From a virus, in the IMG/VR virus record IMGVR_UViG_3300045482_000112, positions 4,328 through 68,327 of that record: 64,000 bases of DNA. The stretch is one strand, 5' to 3'. Position numbers and translations under genes: made by a program. This document shows positions 3,706-46,145 of this stretch, piece after piece (position 1 is the first letter of the stretch; the number at the start of each line of letters is the position of its first letter). Below the pieces are notes generated by a model. The model did not search any database. It saw nothing but the letters and a program-made list of their open reading frames with translations, and had not been told where the DNA came from.

Positions 3706-4392
3706 ATGAGCAAACTACGTCTCTTACAGGCCGGACTGGTGGTCTACATCACTATCCTCATCACCTCCTTCCTGCATGTACTTCACGCTTTCCTGGCCTA
3801 CTCTGACAAGACCATTCAGCTCGGCAGTCTATCCATTCCAGGATGGTGGAGCGGACTGGGAGTGGCTATAGGTCTGGACCTGGCCATCATCTACTTCTCC
3901 TTCGTCTCGGTATTCCTGCAGACCAATGAAAAGGATGCCCAGGGCAAAACCATTCAGTCCCCCGGAGCCCTGGCGGCCCGCTACGGGGCTACCTGGGCCA
4001 TGCTGCTGGTCTGGTTTGCCGTGGTCTACTCCATGGTCTGGCAGCACCTGCAGGCCGGGGAGTGGGTGCCCGCCTTCATTGGGTTCATCCTCTCCCTGTT
4101 TGTCCCCCTGACCTCCCTGCGGGTAGGCCAGGTGCTGGGGGAAATTGCCAAGCTACCCGAGACCGAGACCCGGCCCCAGGAGTACCTGCCCCTGACCTCC
4201 CTGGCCCGAATTATCGACCGGGATGTCAAAGAAGTACTGGCCGCCATCCGCAACTACGAACAGGGTGAGGTGCGCCTGCTACGTCGGGGCAAAGACTGGC
4301 TGGTGCATAGCCAGGATGTGGAGGTGGTGCGTGCGGCAGTATTCGGTTATAACGAACGAAGCAGAACTGCGCAACTTACGCCTGCAACTTGA
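3706..4392 (+). CDS. multi-pass membrane protein (DUF2637-like) with possible C-terminal HTH
   Basis: About four hydrophobic helices, then LPLTSLARIIDRDVKEV HTH-like segment. Confidence 0.6.
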   Translation: MSKLRLLQAGLVVYITILITSFLHVLHAFLAYSDKTIQLGSLSIPGWWSGLGVAIGLDLAIIYFSFVSVFLQTNEKDAQGKTIQSPGALAARYGATWAMLLVWFAVVYSMVWQHLQAGEWVPAFIGFILSLFVPLTSLRVGQVLGEIAKLPETETRPQEYLPLTSLARIIDRDVKEVLAAIRNYEQGEVRLLRRGKDWLVHSQDVEVVRAAVFGYNERSRTAQLTPAT

Positions 4393-36835: not shown

Positions 36836-37453
36836 TTACACAAAGGTAAACGTCTCATCCAGGTAACGAGCGTACACCGCCTGTCTTAAAATATCCCCCA
36901 CATCCTGCCCCACCCCGGTCAGGTACCCATACAGCGGATAGGGGTAGACCACCTCTTCATCCGCCCAAAACAACCTCACCGCCAGGGTGTACACCTCCAC
37001 CACCTCATACTTCACACTCTCCTCCGGCACTCCCCTCTTCCAGAAGACCTGCTTGTCCCGGTACCGGTTCTGCTGTAGATGGCTCCAGGGCTGGATGGGC
37101 CGGGTAGGACAGTCAATAAGAACCCCGTAGTCCACCGGCACCCCCTGGACCTCCAGCTCATGCCTCATCGCGGAGACATGCTGCAGTCCCAGTATTGGCA
37201 GTACCCGCCGCTGTACCAGGTCGAACAACGACACATTGCAGAACGTCACCAGCGAGGCCGCCTCCTTTTCCGCCAGGTAACCCCTCTGCCGGTAACTCCT
37301 GAGAATAGTAGCCCTGGCTCCCTCCGCCTCTTCTCCTGACCCATCCACAAACTGCATGGTAGGGAGTACCCGCAAACTTACTCCCTCCTCCACCTGAAAA
37401 GAATGCACCACCTGCAGGTGTTCCAGCCGGTAGGTAGTCTGCCAATTCTGCAT
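36836..37453 (-). CDS. hypothetical protein, leaderless
   Basis: TAGAAT 7 nt upstream of ATG; first gene of leftward block. Confidence 0.7.
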   Translation of the reverse strand: MQNWQTTYRLEHLQVVHSFQVEEGVSLRVLPTMQFVDGSGEEAEGARATILRSYRQRGYLAEKEAASLVTFCNVSLFDLVQRRVLPILGLQHVSAMRHELEVQGVPVDYGVLIDCPTRPIQPWSHLQQNRYRDKQVFWKRGVPEESVKYEVVEVYTLAVRLFWADEEVVYPYPLYGYLTGVGQDVGDILRQAVYARYLDETFTFV

Positions 37454-37860
37454 ACCTTCAATTCTACTTCACCCTCTCATAGAAGTCGAACTTGTTATTT
37501 CTAAAGAAATTCCCCCCGTTTTTGAAGGTTGGGTTGGGAAATGGGACTTTAGTGCTGCGTGACGGCATAACGCCTACACTCCATAAACACGATAAAAAAG
37601 GCCCTCCCCGCACCTTGCTGCGCTACAGGCTTTGGTGTTGGTTTTTGCTGCTGCAAGACATACTTATATCAGGAAAGGAGATGACTCCGACCCCAAACCC
37701 AAGGCTAGGGCCGAACCCCTAGCCGCTGACAAAAAATCAAAGTGTGGGACTCTACAGAATCCTGCATAAATCCAGCAAGACAATGCTGGTTGGCGGTCTG
37801 CGGGAGCAGTAGCCAGGGCCACCCTACGCGCCCATAGAAGCGTAGGGAAAAGGAAAGAGT

Positions 37861-38187
37861 ATGAAAAACCCTGCAACAAGAGCAGAAGAGCTCGAAGTGC
37901 TGAACAGCTTCGGCTACCGGGTGATTCTGCCCGTAGCCGTCCAGGAGGGCGAATACGCCCTCCTGGAGTTCAAGTCCATGCCGCCCTTGATGGGCGACAT
38001 GGACGTAGTCACGACGGAGGCGCGGTACATACTTGCCTGGAAATACATCCAGGTGGGTTTTGTCCGGGTGATTACCCGGACAAAAGACGAGCGTACGCTC
38101 GGAGTCCACGTCAGGGTATCTCTCGATACCCCAAAGGAGTTCTCGGTAGTGGGGGAGCGGCTCGCCCGCTCCCTGCACAAAAGTTAA
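37861..38187 (+). CDS. hypothetical protein
   Basis: AAGGAAAGAG RBS; 108 aa. Confidence 0.7.
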   Translation: MKNPATRAEELEVLNSFGYRVILPVAVQEGEYALLEFKSMPPLMGDMDVVTTEARYILAWKYIQVGFVRVITRTKDERTLGVHVRVSLDTPKEFSVVGERLARSLHKS

Positions 38188-38229
38188 CCCCCCCCCCCCC
38201 TGCCCGGAGGGTATCCGGGCAAGGAAACC

Positions 38230-38349
38230 ATGCCCAAAAAGAAGTACTACTGGGTCGTGTCCGCGCGGTTTACCGCGCGGTACGACACATATAACCAGGC
38301 CTTAGCAGCATGGGCCAGCCTCAGGCTGGCCCATATAGAGTACCGATAG
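38230..38349 (+). CDS. 39-aa hypothetical protein
   Basis: AAGGA RBS; MPKKKYYWVVSARF...; followed by terminator. Confidence 0.55.
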   Translation: MPKKKYYWVVSARFTARYDTYNQALAAWASLRLAHIEYR

Positions 38350-38353
38350 TTAT

Positions 38354-38381
38354 GCCCCCAGCCGTAAGGCTGGGGGCTTTT
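38354..38381 (+). terminator. intrinsic terminator
   Basis: GCCCCCAGCC-GTAA-GGCTGGGGGC-TTTT. Confidence 0.85.
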
Positions 38382-38399
38382 CCTTTGGGCCAGGGCAGG

Positions 38400-39000
38400 A
38401 GACCCACTCCCACCGCCCACCCCCCAGTTCAGCGAGGCTTACGCCTCGCCTCACTTCCACCCACCGACAGCAAAGCCCCCCGGCATGGCCGAGGCTCTCT
38501 ACGCTCGCCAGGAAAGACAAAGGCAACACTACGTGTCCCACCGCCCACCCCCCACTCCCACCCCTAGAGAACCTCACTCACCCGCCAACGACCCTCGGGC
38601 CAACAACACCCCAAGGACCCACCGCCCGCTCGGCTACGCCGCAGCCTCAAGGGCAGCGCGACTAGAGTCCCACCTCCCGCTCGGTCCCAAAGGGGCCTCA
38701 AGGGCAGCGCGACTAGAGTCCCGCCGCCCACCCCCGGCCCTGGCCTCGCACGCTCGGCCAGGCTTGCCCACCCTTACGACCCCCCACACCACAACCTGGC
38801 CGCCCAAAGAAAAGCTAGGCTGCGGCCACAGGCCGCACTCGACTGTCCTCACCCCCACCCCCACGCCTCGCACCCTACGCTGAGGGACAAAGACCAGTGG
38901 AAAGTTCTACCCGACCAAGGCCCCACCGCCCGTTCAGTTACTACGTAGCCTCAAGGGGGGCAGAACACGTAGTGTCCCACCGCCCACCCCCGCCTCCCAC
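38400..39000. repeat. C-rich non-coding repeat tract
   Basis: CCCACCGCCC(ACCCC) repeated about six times; exact 28-bp repeat at 38644 and 38695. Confidence 0.75.
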
Positions 39001-39110
39001 ACTACCCAGGAAAGAAAGGTAACAAGAGAGTATGGACAGGGTTGCCTGGGTGGGGAAAGAGGGGTAAAAAGGCAAAAAGGGAGAAAAAGTAGAGGACATA
39101 CAACTCATGA

Positions 39111-39310
39111 CTGGGTCGTAGCCCCAGGGCTTTGATGCGCGACTAGCACGGTCCGTCTGCCGTGTCAAGGCCCCCTCCCCGCTACCTGGGGGCCTCCTCC
39201 CCGCTAGCGCGGGTCCCCTCCCCCAGCGGGTCCCCTCCTTGACACGGTTCGCTTCGCCAGCCGTCCCGTGCTGGGCAGTCGCCAAAGCCCTGGGTCTACT
39301 ACTGACCCAG
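39111..39310. promoter_or_regulatory. 200-nt fold-back hairpin upstream of RNAP gene
   Basis: Nested inverted repeats CTGGGTC/GACCCAG, CCCAGGGCTTTG/CAAAGCCCTGGG, GCGACT/AGTCGC, AGCACGG/CCGTGCT, CCGTGTCAAGG/CCTTGACACGG. Confidence 0.75.
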
Positions 39311-39323
39311 GCAAGGAGTTGTT

Positions 39324-41477
39324 ATGCTAAGCATAGAGAAATTCAAGGAAACAATTAAGGAAAAGAAGGAGCACCTCACAGAAGCCCGTAAAGTATACAC
39401 GGGCTCGTTTTCAGAGAGAGGATGGGAGAGGGACTCGTTCGCTCTCCTTTTCAATAATGACGTAAAAATCGAGGACGTAGTGGTAGGGAAGGAGCCTGCC
39501 ACTGTTTTAGACAACATGGAATTCGTGGGGGGCAACTCCCACCGGGTGGTGTACATGGACCTGAAAGGGTTCATGGCCAAATACCCCATCCTTGGAAAAT
39601 GGTGGGGGGAGAAAGGAGACTCCCACCTCCTGGCCAGTATGTTTTTAAGGCCAGGAAAGTTATTCCAGGGGGAAGGGTATATTTCCCTGCCCCCAAAAAA
39701 CAATAAGGAGGTCAATGATGGCCTCCTGATGACCCTGAGCCGTAAAGAATGGGGTCGTTTGGTAGAGGGGTTTGAACTGCCCCTCGAGACCGCCCTAGTT
39801 CAGGGGACGGTGTTTAGTCCCCAGGACGGAATTGTTGGAAAGGGCACCATCCGGGTGGTACTGCCCGGTGAGAAGCCCCAAACTTTTGTGGGGAGCTGGA
39901 AGTCCCTGCCCGAGGAGGTAGGGTCGCTGCTATTTTCCAGTATTTCGGTGCTGGAAACGGACGCCACCTATCGACCCAGGGCGTCTATCAATTTACAGGA
40001 GTACACCTACTGGGCCAGGGCAAGGGGGTACTCCTTGTCTCCATGGGTCTTGGAAGAGGCCCTGGCCGGGGTCAATAAAATTATGGTGGGGGAAAAGTCC
40101 TCCATCTACAACGGGTGGGGGTACCTCTCCCGTCTAGGGATACCCGCCCCCGACTCCATGCTGAAGGAGATGGAGGAGGGCCTGAAGGGAGGGCTATACA
40201 AGGCCCTCACTCGCTGGGAGCTGTCCCGTGCGGCAGGGTGGAGGGGTAAGGTCTCCGGGTCCGAGAAGTTGGCGGACCGGGAGATTCTGATGCCCAAAAG
40301 CTCAGATACCGTGATAGGGGACACGGTATACGCCACCAGAAACCCCGCCCTACCCATCAATGGGTGGGTGAGATACACGGTAGTGGGCCACGTAGGAGGC
40401 AATGTGGCCTATGTAAGTGGGGCGAGCGATAGCAAGTTCGCCCAAGTTTTAGGGGGAGACTTCGACGGGGATGACCTGGTGGTGCTGTACAGGAACCCCG
40501 TGCAGGGCGAATACGAGCCCGTGGTCAACCTCCAGCAGTGGAAGGCCGAGGGAAGGAAGTACGGCACCTCGGCAGAGGACCGGTTGGCCCGCTGGAACAA
40601 GGAGCGGGAAACCAATATCGGGCAGTGGGACATCCTAGCCCGATACTGTGCCGACTTCAATATGCTGAGCGAGGAGCTGGTCCTGCAGTTCTCCAAACTC
40701 ATACAGTTCAGCATCTCTCTGAAGAAGAGAGTGGGAGAACTGGAAGTGCCCAGAGTGGTATACACGGCCATGAAGATGGTGGGTCCCATGAAGGAGCTAT
40801 CGCCCACCTACTTCCTCCGCACCTTCAGGGATAGCACCAAGGAGTCCCGCGAGGCCGGAATGGTCACCCACGCAGAGGCCCTGGCCGAGCTGATGCCCAT
40901 TGTCGAGGCAGTCTCTGATGGGCTCGAGGCAGTCTCGGTGGGGAAAACCCGCTGGGACTTTTCGAGGGCCAGAGAAGTGGCCTTGAAAGTGAGGGACAAC
41001 GACGCCCTCAAGGTGGTCGCAAAAGAGTACCTTGAGAAGTTTGTGGCCCTCAGCACCGCCAAATTCCAGGCTGCAGAGGCCGAGGATGGGGATGTACGGA
41101 GCATCCTCAATCGGGAGCTCAGGTACCTACTGCAAGTAGAAATGCCCGAGTTCATGCTGGGCCTGGAGGAGGAACAGGCCCTGGAGTTCTCCGCCGAATT
41201 GGTCAAGGTGTTCCCCAACAGCATCTTCTGGGTGTTCGCGGTACACCCGGAATTCCTCAGAAGGGTGGCCATGGCTACCTTCGCTGGAGAGAAGGCCATG
41301 TTGGTGGGGGAGCATAGCTTGCAGGAGGGGGATACAGTTATCATCCCCCCCTACACCCGAGAAGTTGAGGTTGGAGGGCAGATGATGAAGCTCTCCAACG
41401 GAGTAATGCTCTGGGAGGAGGTGAAAACCGCCACCGTGGTGAAGGTGTATGCCAAGTCGGTGGTCCTGAAATTCTAA
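39324..41477 (+). CDS. single-subunit double-psi beta-barrel RNA polymerase (YonO/QDE-1/P23-45 gp64-like)
   Basis: LGGDFDGDDL catalytic loop, upstream YATRNPAL and IVGKG; 717 aa; AAGGAG RBS. Confidence 0.8.
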   Translation: MLSIEKFKETIKEKKEHLTEARKVYTGSFSERGWERDSFALLFNNDVKIEDVVVGKEPATVLDNMEFVGGNSHRVVYMDLKGFMAKYPILGKWWGEKGDSHLLASMFLRPGKLFQGEGYISLPPKNNKEVNDGLLMTLSRKEWGRLVEGFELPLETALVQGTVFSPQDGIVGKGTIRVVLPGEKPQTFVGSWKSLPEEVGSLLFSSISVLETDATYRPRASINLQEYTYWARARGYSLSPWVLEEALAGVNKIMVGEKSSIYNGWGYLSRLGIPAPDSMLKEMEEGLKGGLYKALTRWELSRAAGWRGKVSGSEKLADREILMPKSSDTVIGDTVYATRNPALPINGWVRYTVVGHVGGNVAYVSGASDSKFAQVLGGDFDGDDLVVLYRNPVQGEYEPVVNLQQWKAEGRKYGTSAEDRLARWNKERETNIGQWDILARYCADFNMLSEELVLQFSKLIQFSISLKKRVGELEVPRVVYTAMKMVGPMKELSPTYFLRTFRDSTKESREAGMVTHAEALAELMPIVEAVSDGLEAVSVGKTRWDFSRAREVALKVRDNDALKVVAKEYLEKFVALSTAKFQAAEAEDGDVRSILNRELRYLLQVEMPEFMLGLEEEQALEFSAELVKVFPNSIFWVFAVHPEFLRRVAMATFAGEKAMLVGEHSLQEGDTVIIPPYTREVEVGGQMMKLSNGVMLWEEVKTATVVKVYAKSVVLKF

Positions 41478-41578
41478 GAACCCCGGAGTAGAGGCACCTC
41501 CACAGGCTTTGCCGCGTGGGGGATGCCCACCTATTATAAAAAGACCGTCACCTCGCTCGGTTACTTCGGCACCTAAGA

Positions 41579-41604
41579 GGGCCGCTTCGCGGCCCGAATC
41601 GGTG
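41579..41604 (+). repeat. hairpin module A copy 1
   Basis: GGGCCGC-TTC-GCGGCCC-GAATCGGTG. Confidence 0.85.
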
Positions 41605-41654
41605 AGGACAAAAGAGGGAAAAGAAACAGCCCTCTGGCGTCCGAAGGAGGAGTT

Positions 41655-41972
41655 ATGGAATTAAAGAACTTAACCCCCCATGCCCTGGTGGTTGCAGGGC
41701 GAACCATCGAGCCCTCGGGGGTCGTGGCAAGAGTTAGTGTGTCGTTCGAGGATGCCGGGTCCGTGGATGGCATCCCCGTGGTGTCTCAGGTATTCGGGCA
41801 GGTGGAGGGCCTGCCCGAGCCCCAGGAGGGCGTGGCCTTCATCGTCAGCGGTATGGTTCTAGCGACGATAAAGGGCCGGGCGGACGTGTTCGCCCCGGAC
41901 ACCGGCCCCACCGCCATCAGGAACGAGAAGGGCCACATCATCGGGGTGGTCCGTCTCGTGGCAGCGGGGTAG
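41655..41972 (+). CDS. conserved viral hypothetical protein (NLTPH type)
   Basis: NLTPH, PSG..ARV, GLPEP..G...IVS, RADVFAPD; strong RBS. Confidence 0.8.
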   Translation: MELKNLTPHALVVAGRTIEPSGVVARVSVSFEDAGSVDGIPVVSQVFGQVEGLPEPQEGVAFIVSGMVLATIKGRADVFAPDTGPTAIRNEKGHIIGVVRLVAAG

Positions 41973-41977
41973 TTACC

Positions 41978-42235
41978 ATGGTCCCCACCCTGGCCTCCCT
42001 GGGGCGGGCGGTGTTTGTCTGCCGCACGGCCCAGGGATGGGATGTTAGCCCTCATCAGCGGGTATCCCGTAGCAGGCTGCAGGCATTTACTGCCAGCGGC
42101 CAGCTCCGGCTGCTGGATACCCCCACAATAGCCTTCGTCCAGTCGGGGGAGAAGTGGGTGCCCGCAGGCATCTACGACTCCCCCGATGGCCCCATCGCGC
42201 TGGAGCTGCGGCAGGTAGCCGTGGCTTCGGCGTAG
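41978..42235 (+). CDS. hypothetical protein
   Basis: In-operon 85-aa ORF. Confidence 0.6.
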   Translation: MVPTLASLGRAVFVCRTAQGWDVSPHQRVSRSRLQAFTASGQLRLLDTPTIAFVQSGEKWVPAGIYDSPDGPIALELRQVAVASA

Positions 42236-42253
42236 GTAGTAGTAGGAGGACCC

Positions 42254-42403
42254 ATGTATACCAATATAGAAATAGAAGAGCAAGGGGACGGCTGGGTAGT
42301 TTCCCAGGCGTCCAACGGCATTATAATCGGGGTCTACTCCACCTGGGAACAAGCCTGGGCAGTTGCCACCGCAATCGATGCCGAGCTCGGCGTCCCCCAG
42401 TAG
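42254..42403 (+). CDS. 49-aa hypothetical protein (DUF2188-like)
   Basis: AGGAGG RBS; GDGWVV...YSTWEQAWAVA. Confidence 0.65.
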   Translation: MYTNIEIEEQGDGWVVSQASNGIIIGVYSTWEQAWAVATAIDAELGVPQ

Positions 42404-42410
42404 CCCCCAG

Positions 42411-42442
42411 CCCCAGGGTCCAAAAGACTCTGGGGTATTTTT
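42411..42442 (+). terminator. intrinsic terminator
   Basis: CCCCAGGGTC-CAAAA-GACTCTGGGG then TATTTTT. Confidence 0.7.
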
Positions 42443-42629
42443 CTGTACCCCGGCTTGACCGGTGGTACTCCTGGCAAAAGCCACAGGGCCGCATTCGCGG
42501 GGGCTATAACCCCGGCCCTGGCGATGAAGCTGAGCTTTATCGCCCTCGAGGTTCCACAAGAACCGAGAGTGATGGCTTTCTAAACAACAAACCAAGGTTT
42601 TGGTTGTGGGGTACAACTAAAACCTCGAC

Positions 42630-42746
42630 ATGCCTCTGTGAGGGCCTACAAGGGGCCTAGAAGCGCTTACCCCCCCGTCTCCAGTCTTACCCCTACAACC
42701 GGGGGTGGAGGAGCTTCTAGGTACCCTACAGAGGCTTATAGGGGGT
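42630..42746 (+). repeat. ~117-bp long-hairpin repeat copy 1
   Basis: ATGCCTCTGTGAGG...CTAGAAG...CTCCAGT..CTTACCCCTA...CTTCTAGG...CTACAGAG..TTATAGGGGGT shared with 44076. Confidence 0.8.
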
Positions 42747-42808
42747 GTTTACCCTCGAGGTGTCGGCTCGTCCCCAGAGTTCCCTCGAGGGTACCCCGAC
42801 ACTCTGCA

Positions 42809-42834
42809 GGGCCGCTTCGCGGCCCGAACCGGTG
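42809..42834 (+). repeat. hairpin module A copy 2
   Basis: GGGCCGC-TTC-GCGGCCC-GAACCGGTG directly before RBS. Confidence 0.85.
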
Positions 42835-42848
42835 ATAAGGAGGACAGA

Positions 42849-43355
42849 ATGTTATACGTGGTTTTCAACACCGACAAGCCCACTCCCTTCGTAAATATCG
42901 GGGGGGTCCAGTTCGGCCCCCTGGGTACGGGAAAGTACCTGGGGAACGACTGGAGCTACCTGGTTATCCCCGAGGTAGCAGGGCGCTTGCTTTCCGTGCA
43001 GGTGCCTTCCAGGGCCACTGCCAGGGATGCCAGCTTCCACGGCCAGTTCGGGGATGGCGTATATGCCGTCCTCCTGGCCCGGTACAACGGGAGACGGTCC
43101 CCAACCCTGTTCCTCACCGATGAGGCCGACCATGAGCCCATCGGAACCGGAGGGGCCAAGTGCGTCTGGCAGTACGGGGATGGCCACGGTATGAAGTTCG
43201 GGGCCCTCCTCCGGCTGGACCCCGTAGCTCAGGTAAAACTGAGCGTAACGGGGCACCACGACCACGGCTGGGCCCGTCACATCTTCAAATTTCAGGATGG
43301 GGTAGTCTCCCGCATCCCCAGGAATGGGGGCTGGAAGACTCCCCCAGTAATTTAG
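42849..43355 (+). CDS. hypothetical protein
   Basis: AAGGAGG RBS before ATG 42849. Confidence 0.75.
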   Translation: MLYVVFNTDKPTPFVNIGGVQFGPLGTGKYLGNDWSYLVIPEVAGRLLSVQVPSRATARDASFHGQFGDGVYAVLLARYNGRRSPTLFLTDEADHEPIGTGGAKCVWQYGDGHGMKFGALLRLDPVAQVKLSVTGHHDHGWARHIFKFQDGVVSRIPRNGGWKTPPVI

Positions 43356-43363
43356 GGAGAGTT

Positions 43364-43672
43364 ATGCGAATAGACATAAAGGCCACCCTGGCCGCCCTGA
43401 TGGGGATGCCGGGGGAGTTAGTCACTAGGACAAACCCCGCCAGTAGCGCGGTGGGGCCGTCCACCGAGTTTGCCGTCCGGGACCAGGACGGGGAGGACAG
43501 CCTGGAACTCCTCCTCGACTACCTGGTCATCTCCGTATCCTGGGGGTCCATGAGTTTCTGGGACCGCTGGGAGGGGGAGCCCGGAGAACCCCTGCGGTAC
43601 ACGGGAACCGTAGGGGACGCCCACAGAAGACTACCCGCATGGGTGGTCTTCGAGGAAGGGGGTGCGGGTTGA
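43364..43672 (+). CDS. hypothetical protein
   Basis: GGGAG RBS, ATG 43364. Confidence 0.7.
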   Translation: MRIDIKATLAALMGMPGELVTRTNPASSAVGPSTEFAVRDQDGEDSLELLLDYLVISVSWGSMSFWDRWEGEPGEPLRYTGTVGDAHRRLPAWVVFEEGGAG

Positions 43673-43861
43673 TGCCCTCATAGGGTGGTTTGTCGGGTGG
43701 TACTCGAGGCGAGAGTCCTCAGGATGGCTCCCGCTAGGGGGGCTATACCCCGGCCACACCGTGGGGGGATGACCTGCCTCAAAACTTTCCTAGGCAGGTA
43801 CCGCCAGGTAGACGCCATGGGGGTGCTGAAGAGGAGCGAAGCGACTGTTCCCCACCTGAGA

Positions 43862-43887
43862 GGGCCGCGAAGCGGTCCGAACCGGTG
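43862..43887 (+). repeat. hairpin module A copy 3 (GAA loop)
   Basis: GGGCCGC-GAA-GCGGTCC-GAACCGGTG. Confidence 0.8.
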
Positions 43888-44075
43888 ATGAGAAAGAGCA
43901 GAAGGAGCGCGGAGAAGCGCTCCGGGTAGGGACAGCAAAGGTAAACCCAATCCTGCACCTGAGAAAGGAGGTCACCCCATCTATAAAGTGTGCTCCCAGC
44001 CGCAATTCCTATCCAATGAAGGGGGTAGAATCCCCCCAAATCAGGAAATGCGTCCAGGGCATACTAAAATGCCAT

Positions 44076-45402: not shown

Positions 45403-45963
45403 ATGAAGCTCGGGAACACCCCAAACAAAACCGTGGTTGTGTACCGCCTGTACCCCACAAAGGAGCAAGAAAGTACCCTGCTGCTCACACTAGACCTAAC
45501 GTGGAAGCTATACAACATCGCCCTGACGGAACGGAAGGAAGCCTGGAAACGACACAAGAAGAACCTATCCGCATACGACCAGATGTATGCCTTACCCTAC
45601 CTCAAGAAGACAAGACCCGAGTTCCAAAAGGTCTACGCTCAGGTGCTCCAGCAAACCCTTATCCAGGTGGAACAAACGTTCAACAGATTCTTCGCAAAAG
45701 TCCGCCTGAAAGAGAAGGCAACCTATCCCCAGGTTGTAGAAAGAGGGGAGTGGACTAGCTTCACCTTTCCGCAAGTCGTGGTGGGTACAAAATGGCAAGG
45801 TCCAGGTAAGTTACGAGAAAACGGTACCGTCAAAATTCCCAAGATAGGAGACGTTCGGATAGACGTGCACCGTCCCCTTGAAGGGACACCTAAAGCCCTC
45901 ACCATCAGTTACCAGAACGAGCAATGGTACGCACTGTACTCCTGTGACGTACCACCAACCTGA
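45403..45963 (+). CDS. TnpB N-terminal (WED/REC) protein lacking RuvC
   Basis: YRLYPTKEQ, LYNIAL.ER, VYAQVLQQ, FNRFF, SFTFPQ, KIPKIG, HRPLEG..K..TI..WY; ends before RuvC-I. Confidence 0.85.
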   Translation: MKLGNTPNKTVVVYRLYPTKEQESTLLLTLDLTWKLYNIALTERKEAWKRHKKNLSAYDQMYALPYLKKTRPEFQKVYAQVLQQTLIQVEQTFNRFFAKVRLKEKATYPQVVERGEWTSFTFPQVVVGTKWQGPGKLRENGTVKIPKIGDVRIDVHRPLEGTPKALTISYQNEQWYALYSCDVPPT

Positions 45964-45982: not shown

Positions 45983-46022
45983 ACCCACCCAGAAAGACAC
46001 TCCATGTCCGACTGGGTGGGTT
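45983..46022 (+). terminator. hairpin after truncated tnpB
   Basis: ACCCACCCAG...CTGGGTGGGT then TCTCTT. Confidence 0.5.
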
Positions 46023-46029
46023 CTCTTGT

Positions 46030-46114
46030 GCCGCTTCGCGGCTAGACCGGTGATGAAGGGAAGCGTAGCGACCCGTCATTACCTATGAGGGCCGCTTCGC
46101 GGCCCGAACCGGTG
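46030..46114 (+). repeat. hairpin module A copies 5 and 6 joined by hairpin B
   Basis: GCCGC-TTC-GCGGC-TAGACC-GGTGATGAAGGG..GCGTAGCGA..CCCGTCATTACC-TATGA-GGGCCGC-TTC-GCGGCCC-GAACCGGTG. Confidence 0.85.
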
Positions 46115-46145
46115 GGGAGTAAACAACCCACCCAAGGAGGCAGTC

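Follow-up and report, generated by a model that had tools for sequence, protein, structure and literature searches.

A long fold-back conserved directly upstream of the RNA polymerase gene in phiFa-type phages as a candidate leader of that gene

How phages related to the Thermus phage phiFa express their first genes was left open by Chaban et al. for this type of phage, which has a gp64-like polymerase and no virion polymerase, according to the available portion of that report (PMC10770324). The same question arises at a locus of the IMG/VR virus record IMGVR_UViG_3300045482_000112, of which positions 4,328 to 68,327 were analysed (a stretch of 64,000 nucleotides (nt), hereafter the window). 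A gene coding for a single-chain RNA polymerase (RNAP) of 717 amino acids is located on the + strand at 39324..41477 and is directly preceded by a long imperfect fold-back at 39100..39322. The best explanation for the fold-back is a conserved cis-element dedicated to the expression of the phage RNAP gene, and it is tentatively read here, at a probability of roughly 0.38, as an mRNA leader that would gate the translation or processing of the RNAP message. The fold-back was not mentioned in the phiFa literature searched; the available parts of PMC7515739 and PMC10770324 do not contain the word hairpin and those of PMC6452258 are silent on phiFa promoters.

The fold-back comprised approximately 79 Watson-Crick pairs and was divided into a left arm (39100-39170), an apex (39171-39236) and a right arm (39237-39322). 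As single-stranded DNA (ssDNA), the region 39100-39325 folded with -72.7 kcal/mol on the + strand (z-score -9.95) and -77.8 kcal/mol on the - strand (z-score -10.02), and as + strand RNA with -124 kcal/mol (z-score -8.42), with none of 200 dinucleotide shuffles as stable in any of the three cases. At z-scores of about -10 on either strand, the inverted repeats that a first-pass annotation of the letters had noticed before the RNAP gene are a genuine structure far beyond chance. A repeat finder returned nested inverted repeats including I1 (39115-39162 and 39255-39302), I9 (39108-39117 and 39304-39313) and the apex-proximal I5 (39160-39170 and 39237-39247), which was complementary at 11 of 11 positions. 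The left half of this perfect 11-base-pair (bp) stem, CCGTGTCAAGG, contains TTGACA on the - strand at 39163-39168 and the right half, CCTTGACACGG, contains TTGACA on the + strand at 39239-39244. The annotation had described nested repeats within a 200-nt span (39111..39310) that stopped 3 nt before the ribosome-binding site. The nesting held, but the element is larger and does not stop there, as an outer stem of ACAACTC (39100-39106) and GAGTTGT (39316-39322) covers the last three bases of the Shine-Dalgarno sequence AAGGAG (39313-39318), which with the RNAP start codon ATG at 39324 makes up the + strand initiation region 39313..39326. In a sliding 200-nt scan of the window the fold-back ranked sixth after neighbouring hairpin clusters, the frame being shorter than the whole 223-nt element. 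A cmscan search of 37400-39500 (Rfam 15, E up to 1) gave six weak matches, all within 38260-38457 and none in 39100-39322.

The annotation had also taken the gene that follows for a phage RNAP, which was borne out. The protein has the catalytic DxDGD motif with an upstream [RK]xP, seen as RNPALP...GGDFDGDD, and its sole match among 50,697 phage records was gp44 of Thermus phage phiFa ('RNA polymerase'; 36% identity, 87% coverage, E = 3e-78). The family profile was aligned by hhalign to P23-45 gp64 over 210 columns of the catalytic region (probability 73%, E = 3.1e-5). The family was small, with seven proteins including the query among 5.8 billion sequences, and sequence and profile searches of Pfam, PHROGs and PDB returned no RNAP match. 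Judged by its sequence, the 717-amino-acid protein is a probable gp64-type, non-virion two-barrel RNAP related to phiFa gp44 and distantly to P23-45 gp64. A search for a second polymerase in the phage's own record with this protein returned only its own gene, the DFDGD motif was confined to the RNAP open reading frame (ORF), and Pfam found no polymerase domain in the tape measure ORF of 2,636 amino acids. Among the genes of the record, which is a tailed-phage genome, are those for a tape measure, an endolysin and a ParB-like protein. The siphovirus phiFa has long terminal repeats, and its gp44 gene lies within the 6.6-kilobase (kb) repeat.

Four independent lineages were readable as DNA, namely the window, L005 (record G001), L006/L008 (record G002) and phiFa (L004) with its near-twin L007. 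A long fold-back was located directly 5' of the polymerase Shine-Dalgarno in all four, with its 3' base either 0-3 nt before the Shine-Dalgarno or inside it. Dinucleotide shuffling of each lineage gave z-scores on the + and - strands of -9.8 and -9.7 for the window, -7.3 and -8.6 for phiFa, -11.0 and -11.9 for L005, and -7.9 and -9.4 for G002, and 0 of 200 shuffles were as good in all eight tests. The fold-back was the top 200-nt window of G001 (z-score -5.2) and ranked third and fourth in phiFa, where it is present in two repeat copies, after palindromes at the repeat boundary. BLAST of the window fold-back against the records of the three relatives returned only chance-level matches of 11-18 nt; without usable similarity between the fold-backs, the arms must have co-varied. 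A fold-back that is retained 5' of the RNAP gene in four of four lineages despite almost no sequence similarity is a selected cis-element tied to the polymerase gene. These results rest on folds and shuffles of the individual lineages, which were used in place of an alignment-based covariation analysis of the four hairpins (MAFFT/RNAalifold) that mis-registered the arms (covariation term -0.69).

Short blocks within the arms were conserved. The window and L005, whose polymerases share approximately 34% identity, have identical ACAACTC/GAGTTGT, CTAGCACGG/CCGTGCTGG, GTCAAGG/CCTTGAC and TTCGCTTCGCC blocks. G002 retains GTGTCAAGGCC/GGCCTTGACAC and two GCTTCGC words, and phiFa carries GCGCAAGGC/GCCTTGCGC, such that a GTCAAGG/CCTTGAC core is found in the window, L005 and G002 and its counterpart GCAAGG/CCTTGC in phiFa. 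The G002 left arm was recovered from the opposite end of a circularly permuted contig. This record (67,481 bp) was broken inside the fold-back left arm (L006 1-32; contig 1-70), its ends overlap by 32 nt with two mismatches, and the palindrome probably caused this break during assembly. In four runs, contigs from close relatives of phiFa differed from L007 mostly in hairpin loops and bulges, with two stem changes in one run; these contigs have a depth of about 4-10, come from one study in three of the four runs, and are probably DNA and so uninformative on RNA ends. No further relatives were found by a single-protein scan of viral contigs or a scan of genome contigs, and a phage DNA similarity search with 38800-39700 gave no match. 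Two pattern scans of viral contigs with the conserved blocks recovered G001 and G002 again, and the new matches (L031, L034) were chance occurrences inside coding DNA.

The arrangement around the fold-back was likewise shared. In all four lineages same-strand C-rich repeats are followed by a purine-rich tract, the fold-back, the Shine-Dalgarno and the gene. The tract in the window (39005..39099, + strand) is directly 5' of the fold-back and contains many Shine-Dalgarno-like words. Further upstream, the window and L005 have minus-strand genes, two small plus-strand ORFs, a terminator-like hairpin and a non-coding stretch of 700-900 nt. The terminator-like hairpin of the window, with its T-run, is located at 38354..38385 on the + strand and closes the upstream + strand unit; the promoter of the RNAP unit is therefore expected between 38354-38385 and 39323. 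A small ORF upstream (ATG 39107 to TAG 39121, behind GAGGA) was considered and dropped, as its frames and lengths differ in the other lineages.

The fold-back would most likely be transcribed within a long 5' leader that starts upstream. A very stable RNA hairpin with its base abutting or covering the ribosome-binding site would then gate translation, and the purine-rich tract 5' of the hairpin may act as a ribosome landing or standby region. Alternatively, the hairpin may be a processing or stabilising site for a double-strand RNase of the RNase III type. Hairpins serve as RNase III-type sites before early regulatory genes of other phages; leader hairpins of such genes are known from lambda N and from T7 gene 1 with its RNase III site R1. 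The fold-back resembles these in being a stable hairpin directly 5' of a key early gene, at or over the ribosome-binding site and lacking a terminator T-run, and differs in being three to four times longer, in having essentially no wobble and in its conserved -35-like and minihairpin words.

Several observations are in line with a leader. At 70 C, the host growth temperature, the RNA hairpins had folding energies of -59.9 to -67.9 kcal/mol, and the probability of a paired Shine-Dalgarno was 0.99 in L005, where the anti-Shine-Dalgarno pairing is full, and 0.60 in the window for the whole fold-back in RNA. The stem that masks the Shine-Dalgarno, ACAACTC/GAGTTGT, is the outer block kept in both lineages despite their diverged polymerases. 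No T-run follows the hairpin, which is therefore not an intrinsic terminator. In phiFa the RNAP gene occupies the sixth place of an early cluster of co-directional genes, and RNA from read-through would therefore include the hairpin. L005 has a near-consensus sigmaA promoter, TTGACT-17-TAAGGT, which lies outside the fold-back at approximately 325 nt before the ATG; it is located after the terminator-like hairpin and no + strand terminator-like site was listed between it and the fold-back. The upstream L005 promoter and the strand-specific layout in all four lineages favour the leader.

Other results weigh against it. Masking of the Shine-Dalgarno was not universal, with a probability of pairing of only 0.13 in phiFa at 70 C. 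A relaxed scan (TANNNT plus either TTG or at least four of six matches at -35) found no coding-strand sigmaA-type promoter in 37450-39330 of the window or in 1-2570 of phiFa, and in these two of the four lineages the leader transcript is therefore without a visible start. The pairing itself was unusually pure: folds restricted to Watson-Crick pairs contained 79 + 63 + 56 + 64 = 262 pairs with four 1x1 mismatches (A-G, C-T twice and T-T) and no G-T or A-C opposition beside them. RNA-level selection on one strand usually leaves wobble pairs there, but no sense-strand-only wobble signature was detected, the G-U counts being alike on both strands when wobble was allowed (per hairpin, 1-2 on the + strand against 1-3 on the - strand). 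In five of five loci the - strand was also the more stable, by 1.4-8.8 kcal/mol. The word GCTTCGC is no specially stable RNA loop, whereas its complement GCGAAGC forms an exceptionally stable DNA minihairpin, and there is no obvious RNA explanation for the conservation of TTGAC in the stem.

The argument from pairing purity is weaker than it looks, as template switching can keep palindromes perfect whatever their function. One fold-back triloop in the phiFa relatives was replaced by its exact reverse complement (L007 2890-2892, GGA to TCC), and the same type of change was observed in the window between copies of a repeated motif described below (43867, TTC to GAA). Such triloop inversion is a signature of template switching across a DNA hairpin, and the inversions show that folding occurs at the DNA level. 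The lack of wobble, the retention of GCGAAGC on the template strand and the two lineages with no upstream sigmaA-like promoter keep readings at the DNA level alive. It is possible, although on the whole unlikely, that in phiFa-type phages, which do not inject a polymerase as P23-45 does, the RNAP gene is first transcribed from within the fold-back in an extruded or single-stranded state. The fold-back would rebuild promoter elements, either a -35 box with a pre-distorted TA element or a template-strand GCGAAGC minihairpin, and act as a structure-dependent promoter of a double-stranded thermophilic phage that the host sigmaA enzyme or the phage two-barrel enzyme would read.

The first of these versions was that of the first-pass annotation, which had compared the locus to the Frpo/ssi ssDNA promoters of the F and ColIb-P9 plasmid leading regions (Masai & Arai 1997, as described in the available parts of PMC9849209 and PMC11541004). 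The - strand would fold, as ssDNA or as a cruciform arm, the left arm would supply the non-template -35 and -10 elements for the host sigmaA RNAP and the right arm, followed by the RNAP gene, would be copied; this strand logic is consistent with the arrangement found. An mRNA that starts inside the right arm would leave the ribosome-binding site free. The predicted geometry was present on the - strand of the left arm, where TTGACA (39168-39163; TGTCAA on the + strand) is followed by a 17-nt spacer (39146-39162) ending in TGC and by TAGTCG (39145-39140; CGACTA on the + strand). The putative -10 region (39140..39151, - strand) reads CGACTAGCACGG on the + strand and CCGTGCTAGTCG on the - strand; the CTAGCACGG block here is identical in L005. 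TTGACA was found in the right arm as well, one base to the left of its mirror-image expectation. After the 27-nt spacer attributed to this arm the hexamer is TGGGCA, which is not -10-like. In the minimum-energy fold of the - strand TAGTCG is paired and a 4-nt bulge (GCCC) of the opposite arm is located exactly at its T/A step.

Across the lineages, the -35-like box on the - strand was TTGACA in the window and G002, TTGACC in L005 and TTGCGC in phiFa, each within a perfect stem. TTGAC was therefore kept in three of four lineages and TTG in all four, in stems of 9-12 bp. A helix irregularity occurred at the TA of the putative -10 in all four lineages, in L005 as a single bulged base at the T/A step, and TGCTAG, which resembles an extended -10 (TGn and then TA), was the same in the window and L005. 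Over the 64-kb window TTGACA is depleted (10 found against 20.2 +/- 4.9 expected), with two of the ten copies in the fold-back. As ssDNA the hairpins retained -38 to -46 kcal/mol at 70 C (-45.8 kcal/mol for the window - strand, with a stable stem-loop in the three other lineages also). The Watson-Crick-only pairing, the more stable - strand and the lack of a visible sigmaA-like promoter upstream in the window and phiFa would fit the same version. On the other hand, the final T of the Thermus -10 consensus TANNNT, as given in the available part of bioRxiv 10.64898/2026.04.20.719267, was absent from all four lineages. The annotation had itself raised this caveat for TAGTCG. The candidates and their spacers also varied (TAGTCG with 17 nt, TAGGCC with 19, and TAAGGC with 20 and with 21). 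L005 has its conventional promoter upstream, and blastn of 39100-39325 against 72,556 plasmid records (E up to 0.01) gave no match and hence none to the Frpo/ssi elements among them.

Promoter activity of the fold-back remains putative. The likeness to Frpo/ssi, as far as the accessible descriptions go, lies in the long imperfect stem-loop, the TTGACA rebuilt in the stem, the helix defect at the place of the -10 and the folded strand being the template of the gene needed first. It ends at the -10, which is canonical in none of the lineages, at the variable spacing, at the plasmid comparison and at the carriers, which are double-stranded tailed phages with no known single-stranded entry stage. 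A cruciform in linear phage DNA would presuppose that an imperfect repeat of 220 bp is extruded around a centre of 66 nt, which is hypothetical, and a palindrome that reaches into the Shine-Dalgarno is superfluous to this scheme. The annotation was therefore partly supported: the fold, its position in all lineages, the geometry and the -35-like box stood, and no canonical -10, fixed spacing or similarity to plasmids was found. A host-read promoter of this kind is regarded as doubtful.

Two phage systems also count in favour of the host-read version. Coliphage N4, which has double-stranded DNA, uses promoter hairpins extruded from that DNA for its virion RNAP (PMC13434306, available part), and by analogy first transcription that depends on an extruded hairpin is a candidate here. 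P23-45, whose pre-early and early promoter system is described in PMC10770324 (available part), is a related siphovirus with a homologous non-virion RNAP gene at its early end and a control signal directly 5' of that gene. No comparable fold-back precedes gp64 in P23-45, where only a 30-nt terminator hairpin and an AT-rich virion-RNAP promoter are located, the latter at the position corresponding to the fold-back and with its start site 9 nt before the ATG. The window and the phiFa-type phages have neither the P23-45 promoter motif nor a tape-measure-fused RNAP and carry the fold-back instead.

A signal for the phage's own two-barrel RNAP would be a template-strand hairpin promoter of the GCGAAGC type framed by the larger palindrome. 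Transcription of the RNAP gene would then be self-amplifying, with the first enzyme perhaps arriving with the virion. The GCGAAGC minihairpin noticed in the right arm was confirmed (39251..39257 on the - strand, the template; GCTTCGC on the + strand), is bulged from the arm and belongs to the TTCGCTTCGCC block. N4 has a similar small G+C stem on its template strand, with a triloop of purines. An injected T7-like enzyme reads the N4 hairpins, whose stems are 5-7 bp; the fold-backs differ from them in their length of 160-220 nt, the two-barrel phage RNAP and the lack of a known virion RNAP. The fold-backs of the window, L005, G002 (twice) and a phiFa-like variant all have GCTTCGC in the same orientation, and the word occurs eight times in the window against 2.8 expected, six of these between 39 and 46.1 kb. 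Five + strand copies of a 45-nt motif containing the minihairpin precede downstream genes, and the early cassettes of phiFa carry TAGGGGCGG in hairpin loops, similar to the P23-45 gp64 promoters TCTAGRGGC. The word GTAGAGGACA is common to the window (39089-39098) and phiFa. A related crAss-like virion RNAP (gp66) takes single-stranded but not native double-stranded DNA as its template for transcription, according to the available part of bioRxiv 10.1101/2020.03.07.982082.

Several points weigh against such a signal. The profile of the five-copy motif missed the fold-back at E up to 100 and matched the relatives only at chance level (E up to 10), GTAGAGGACA precedes the fold-back of the window on the 5' side whereas in phiFa it lies within the 3' base, words like GTAGAGGAC are scattered across the window with no link to gene starts, and the first RNAP molecules would still require another source. 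Recognition by the phage enzyme is accordingly held to be rather improbable, slightly more so than recognition by the host enzyme. The P23-45 promoter words were also tried as a promoter set for the window and rejected, with CTAGRGG found 7 times against 37 expected and GTAGAGGAC (at most one mismatch) found 31 times against 17 and scattered.

The repeated words named above form further patterns. The five copies of the 45-nt motif (41563-41617, 42796-42849, 43847-43901, 46020-46067 and 46074-46125) have the form yTRAGAGGGCC-GCTTCGC-GGCCCGAACCGGTGA, were recovered by nhmmer at E = 1e-13 to 2e-9 and had no copies in the relatives. They are located in the + strand gene region downstream of RNAP, two of them directly before a Shine-Dalgarno and ATG, and the motif may serve the early genes as a promoter or a processing signal. 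A motif of L005's own, based on GCGCC-TCC-GGCGC, is present there in four copies. In phiFa three early intergenic cassettes (L004 886-1628) are built alike, a 12-14-bp hairpin (loop GTAGCCGCCCAT) being followed after a spacer by a 9-bp hairpin whose loop, TAGGGGCGG, resembles the P23-45 gp64 promoter word. The tetranucleotide CTAG is depleted in the window (66 found against approximately 227 expected from base composition) and 34 of the 66 are located in 37.7-48.5 kb. An ORF at 45403-45960 matched a PHROG transposase (phrog_506, E = 1e-28) and is located in the kilobase of lowest GC content in the window (0.494).

The region before the fold-back suggested a further function, a replication origin or single-strand initiation palindrome composed of iterons, an A-rich tract and the palindrome, whose place beside the RNAP gene would reflect activation of the origin by transcription. 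Seven copies of GTCCCACCGCCC on the same strand (0-1 mismatch) and three copies of a 51-nt repeat at 38407..38991 (+ strand) precede the purine- and A-rich tract and then the large palindrome, C-rich repeats also precede the fold-backs of the relatives, and L005 has phased A-tracts at the corresponding place. The Watson-Crick-only pairs on both strands and the exact triloop inversion between close relatives, which shows that palindromes fold as DNA during replication, would fit an origin, as would a local minimum of the cumulative GC skew near 39 kb. However, no initiator or replication gene was recognised next to the fold-back, the tight register with the Shine-Dalgarno in all four lineages is unexplained by an origin, and the skew changes only between 39 and 44 kb, which may simply mark a module of different history. 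An origin is thus judged improbable, a little more so than either promoter version. The GC skew is positive solely in 39000-44000, a 5-kb block with the polymerase gene, and negative elsewhere whatever the gene orientation. Elsewhere in the 64-kb window GTCCCACCGCCC (0-1 mismatch) has a single match, at 40620 on the - strand. The word GCGCGACTAG occurs three times, at 38656, 38707 and 39137, the last inside the left arm of the fold-back, and phiFa and G002 carry C-rich words similar to the window repeats in the loops of hairpins that lie upstream of their fold-backs.

Finally, the fold-back may have no dedicated role and be the largest of the hairpins with which the early region is generally packed, for example as a protection of early transcripts against nucleases or RNA-guided defence. 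The stretch 37860-38480 is packed with perfect 10-12-bp hairpins (z-scores of -9.4 and -9.2) up to the terminator-like hairpin at 38354-38385, and perfect hairpins of 9 bp or more number 12 in the window, compared with 0-4 in 10 simulations. Strong folding is also seen at the start of the RNAP coding sequence in G002 and phiFa, and in phiFa type III CRISPR spacers target exactly these early transcripts, according to the available part of PMC7515739. The rank of the fold-back in the 200-nt scans of G001 and phiFa counts against this idea, and the fold-back keeps its exact place and several blocks of 7-11 nt between lineages, which argues for a specific function; general packing is the least probable of the explanations considered. 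The hairpin run of the window is partly inside a plausible ORF of 108 amino acids (37861-38187) with no homologue in the phage collection. In phiFa dense long palindromes of AGCTAGCTTCGTAGTA-type repeats begin where the 6,638-bp terminal repeat ends (L004 6600-7130) and form the strongest local fold of that genome.

The fold-back is the single conserved non-coding element located exactly at the polymerase gene in every relative found and is among the most extreme local structures of each genome. Whichever reading holds, it provides a defined and mutable target for the question of first expression in phiFa-type phages. If the fold-back proved to be a structured promoter, a host-polymerase-dependent step in a double-stranded phage at 70 C would come under the Frpo/N4 principle as well.

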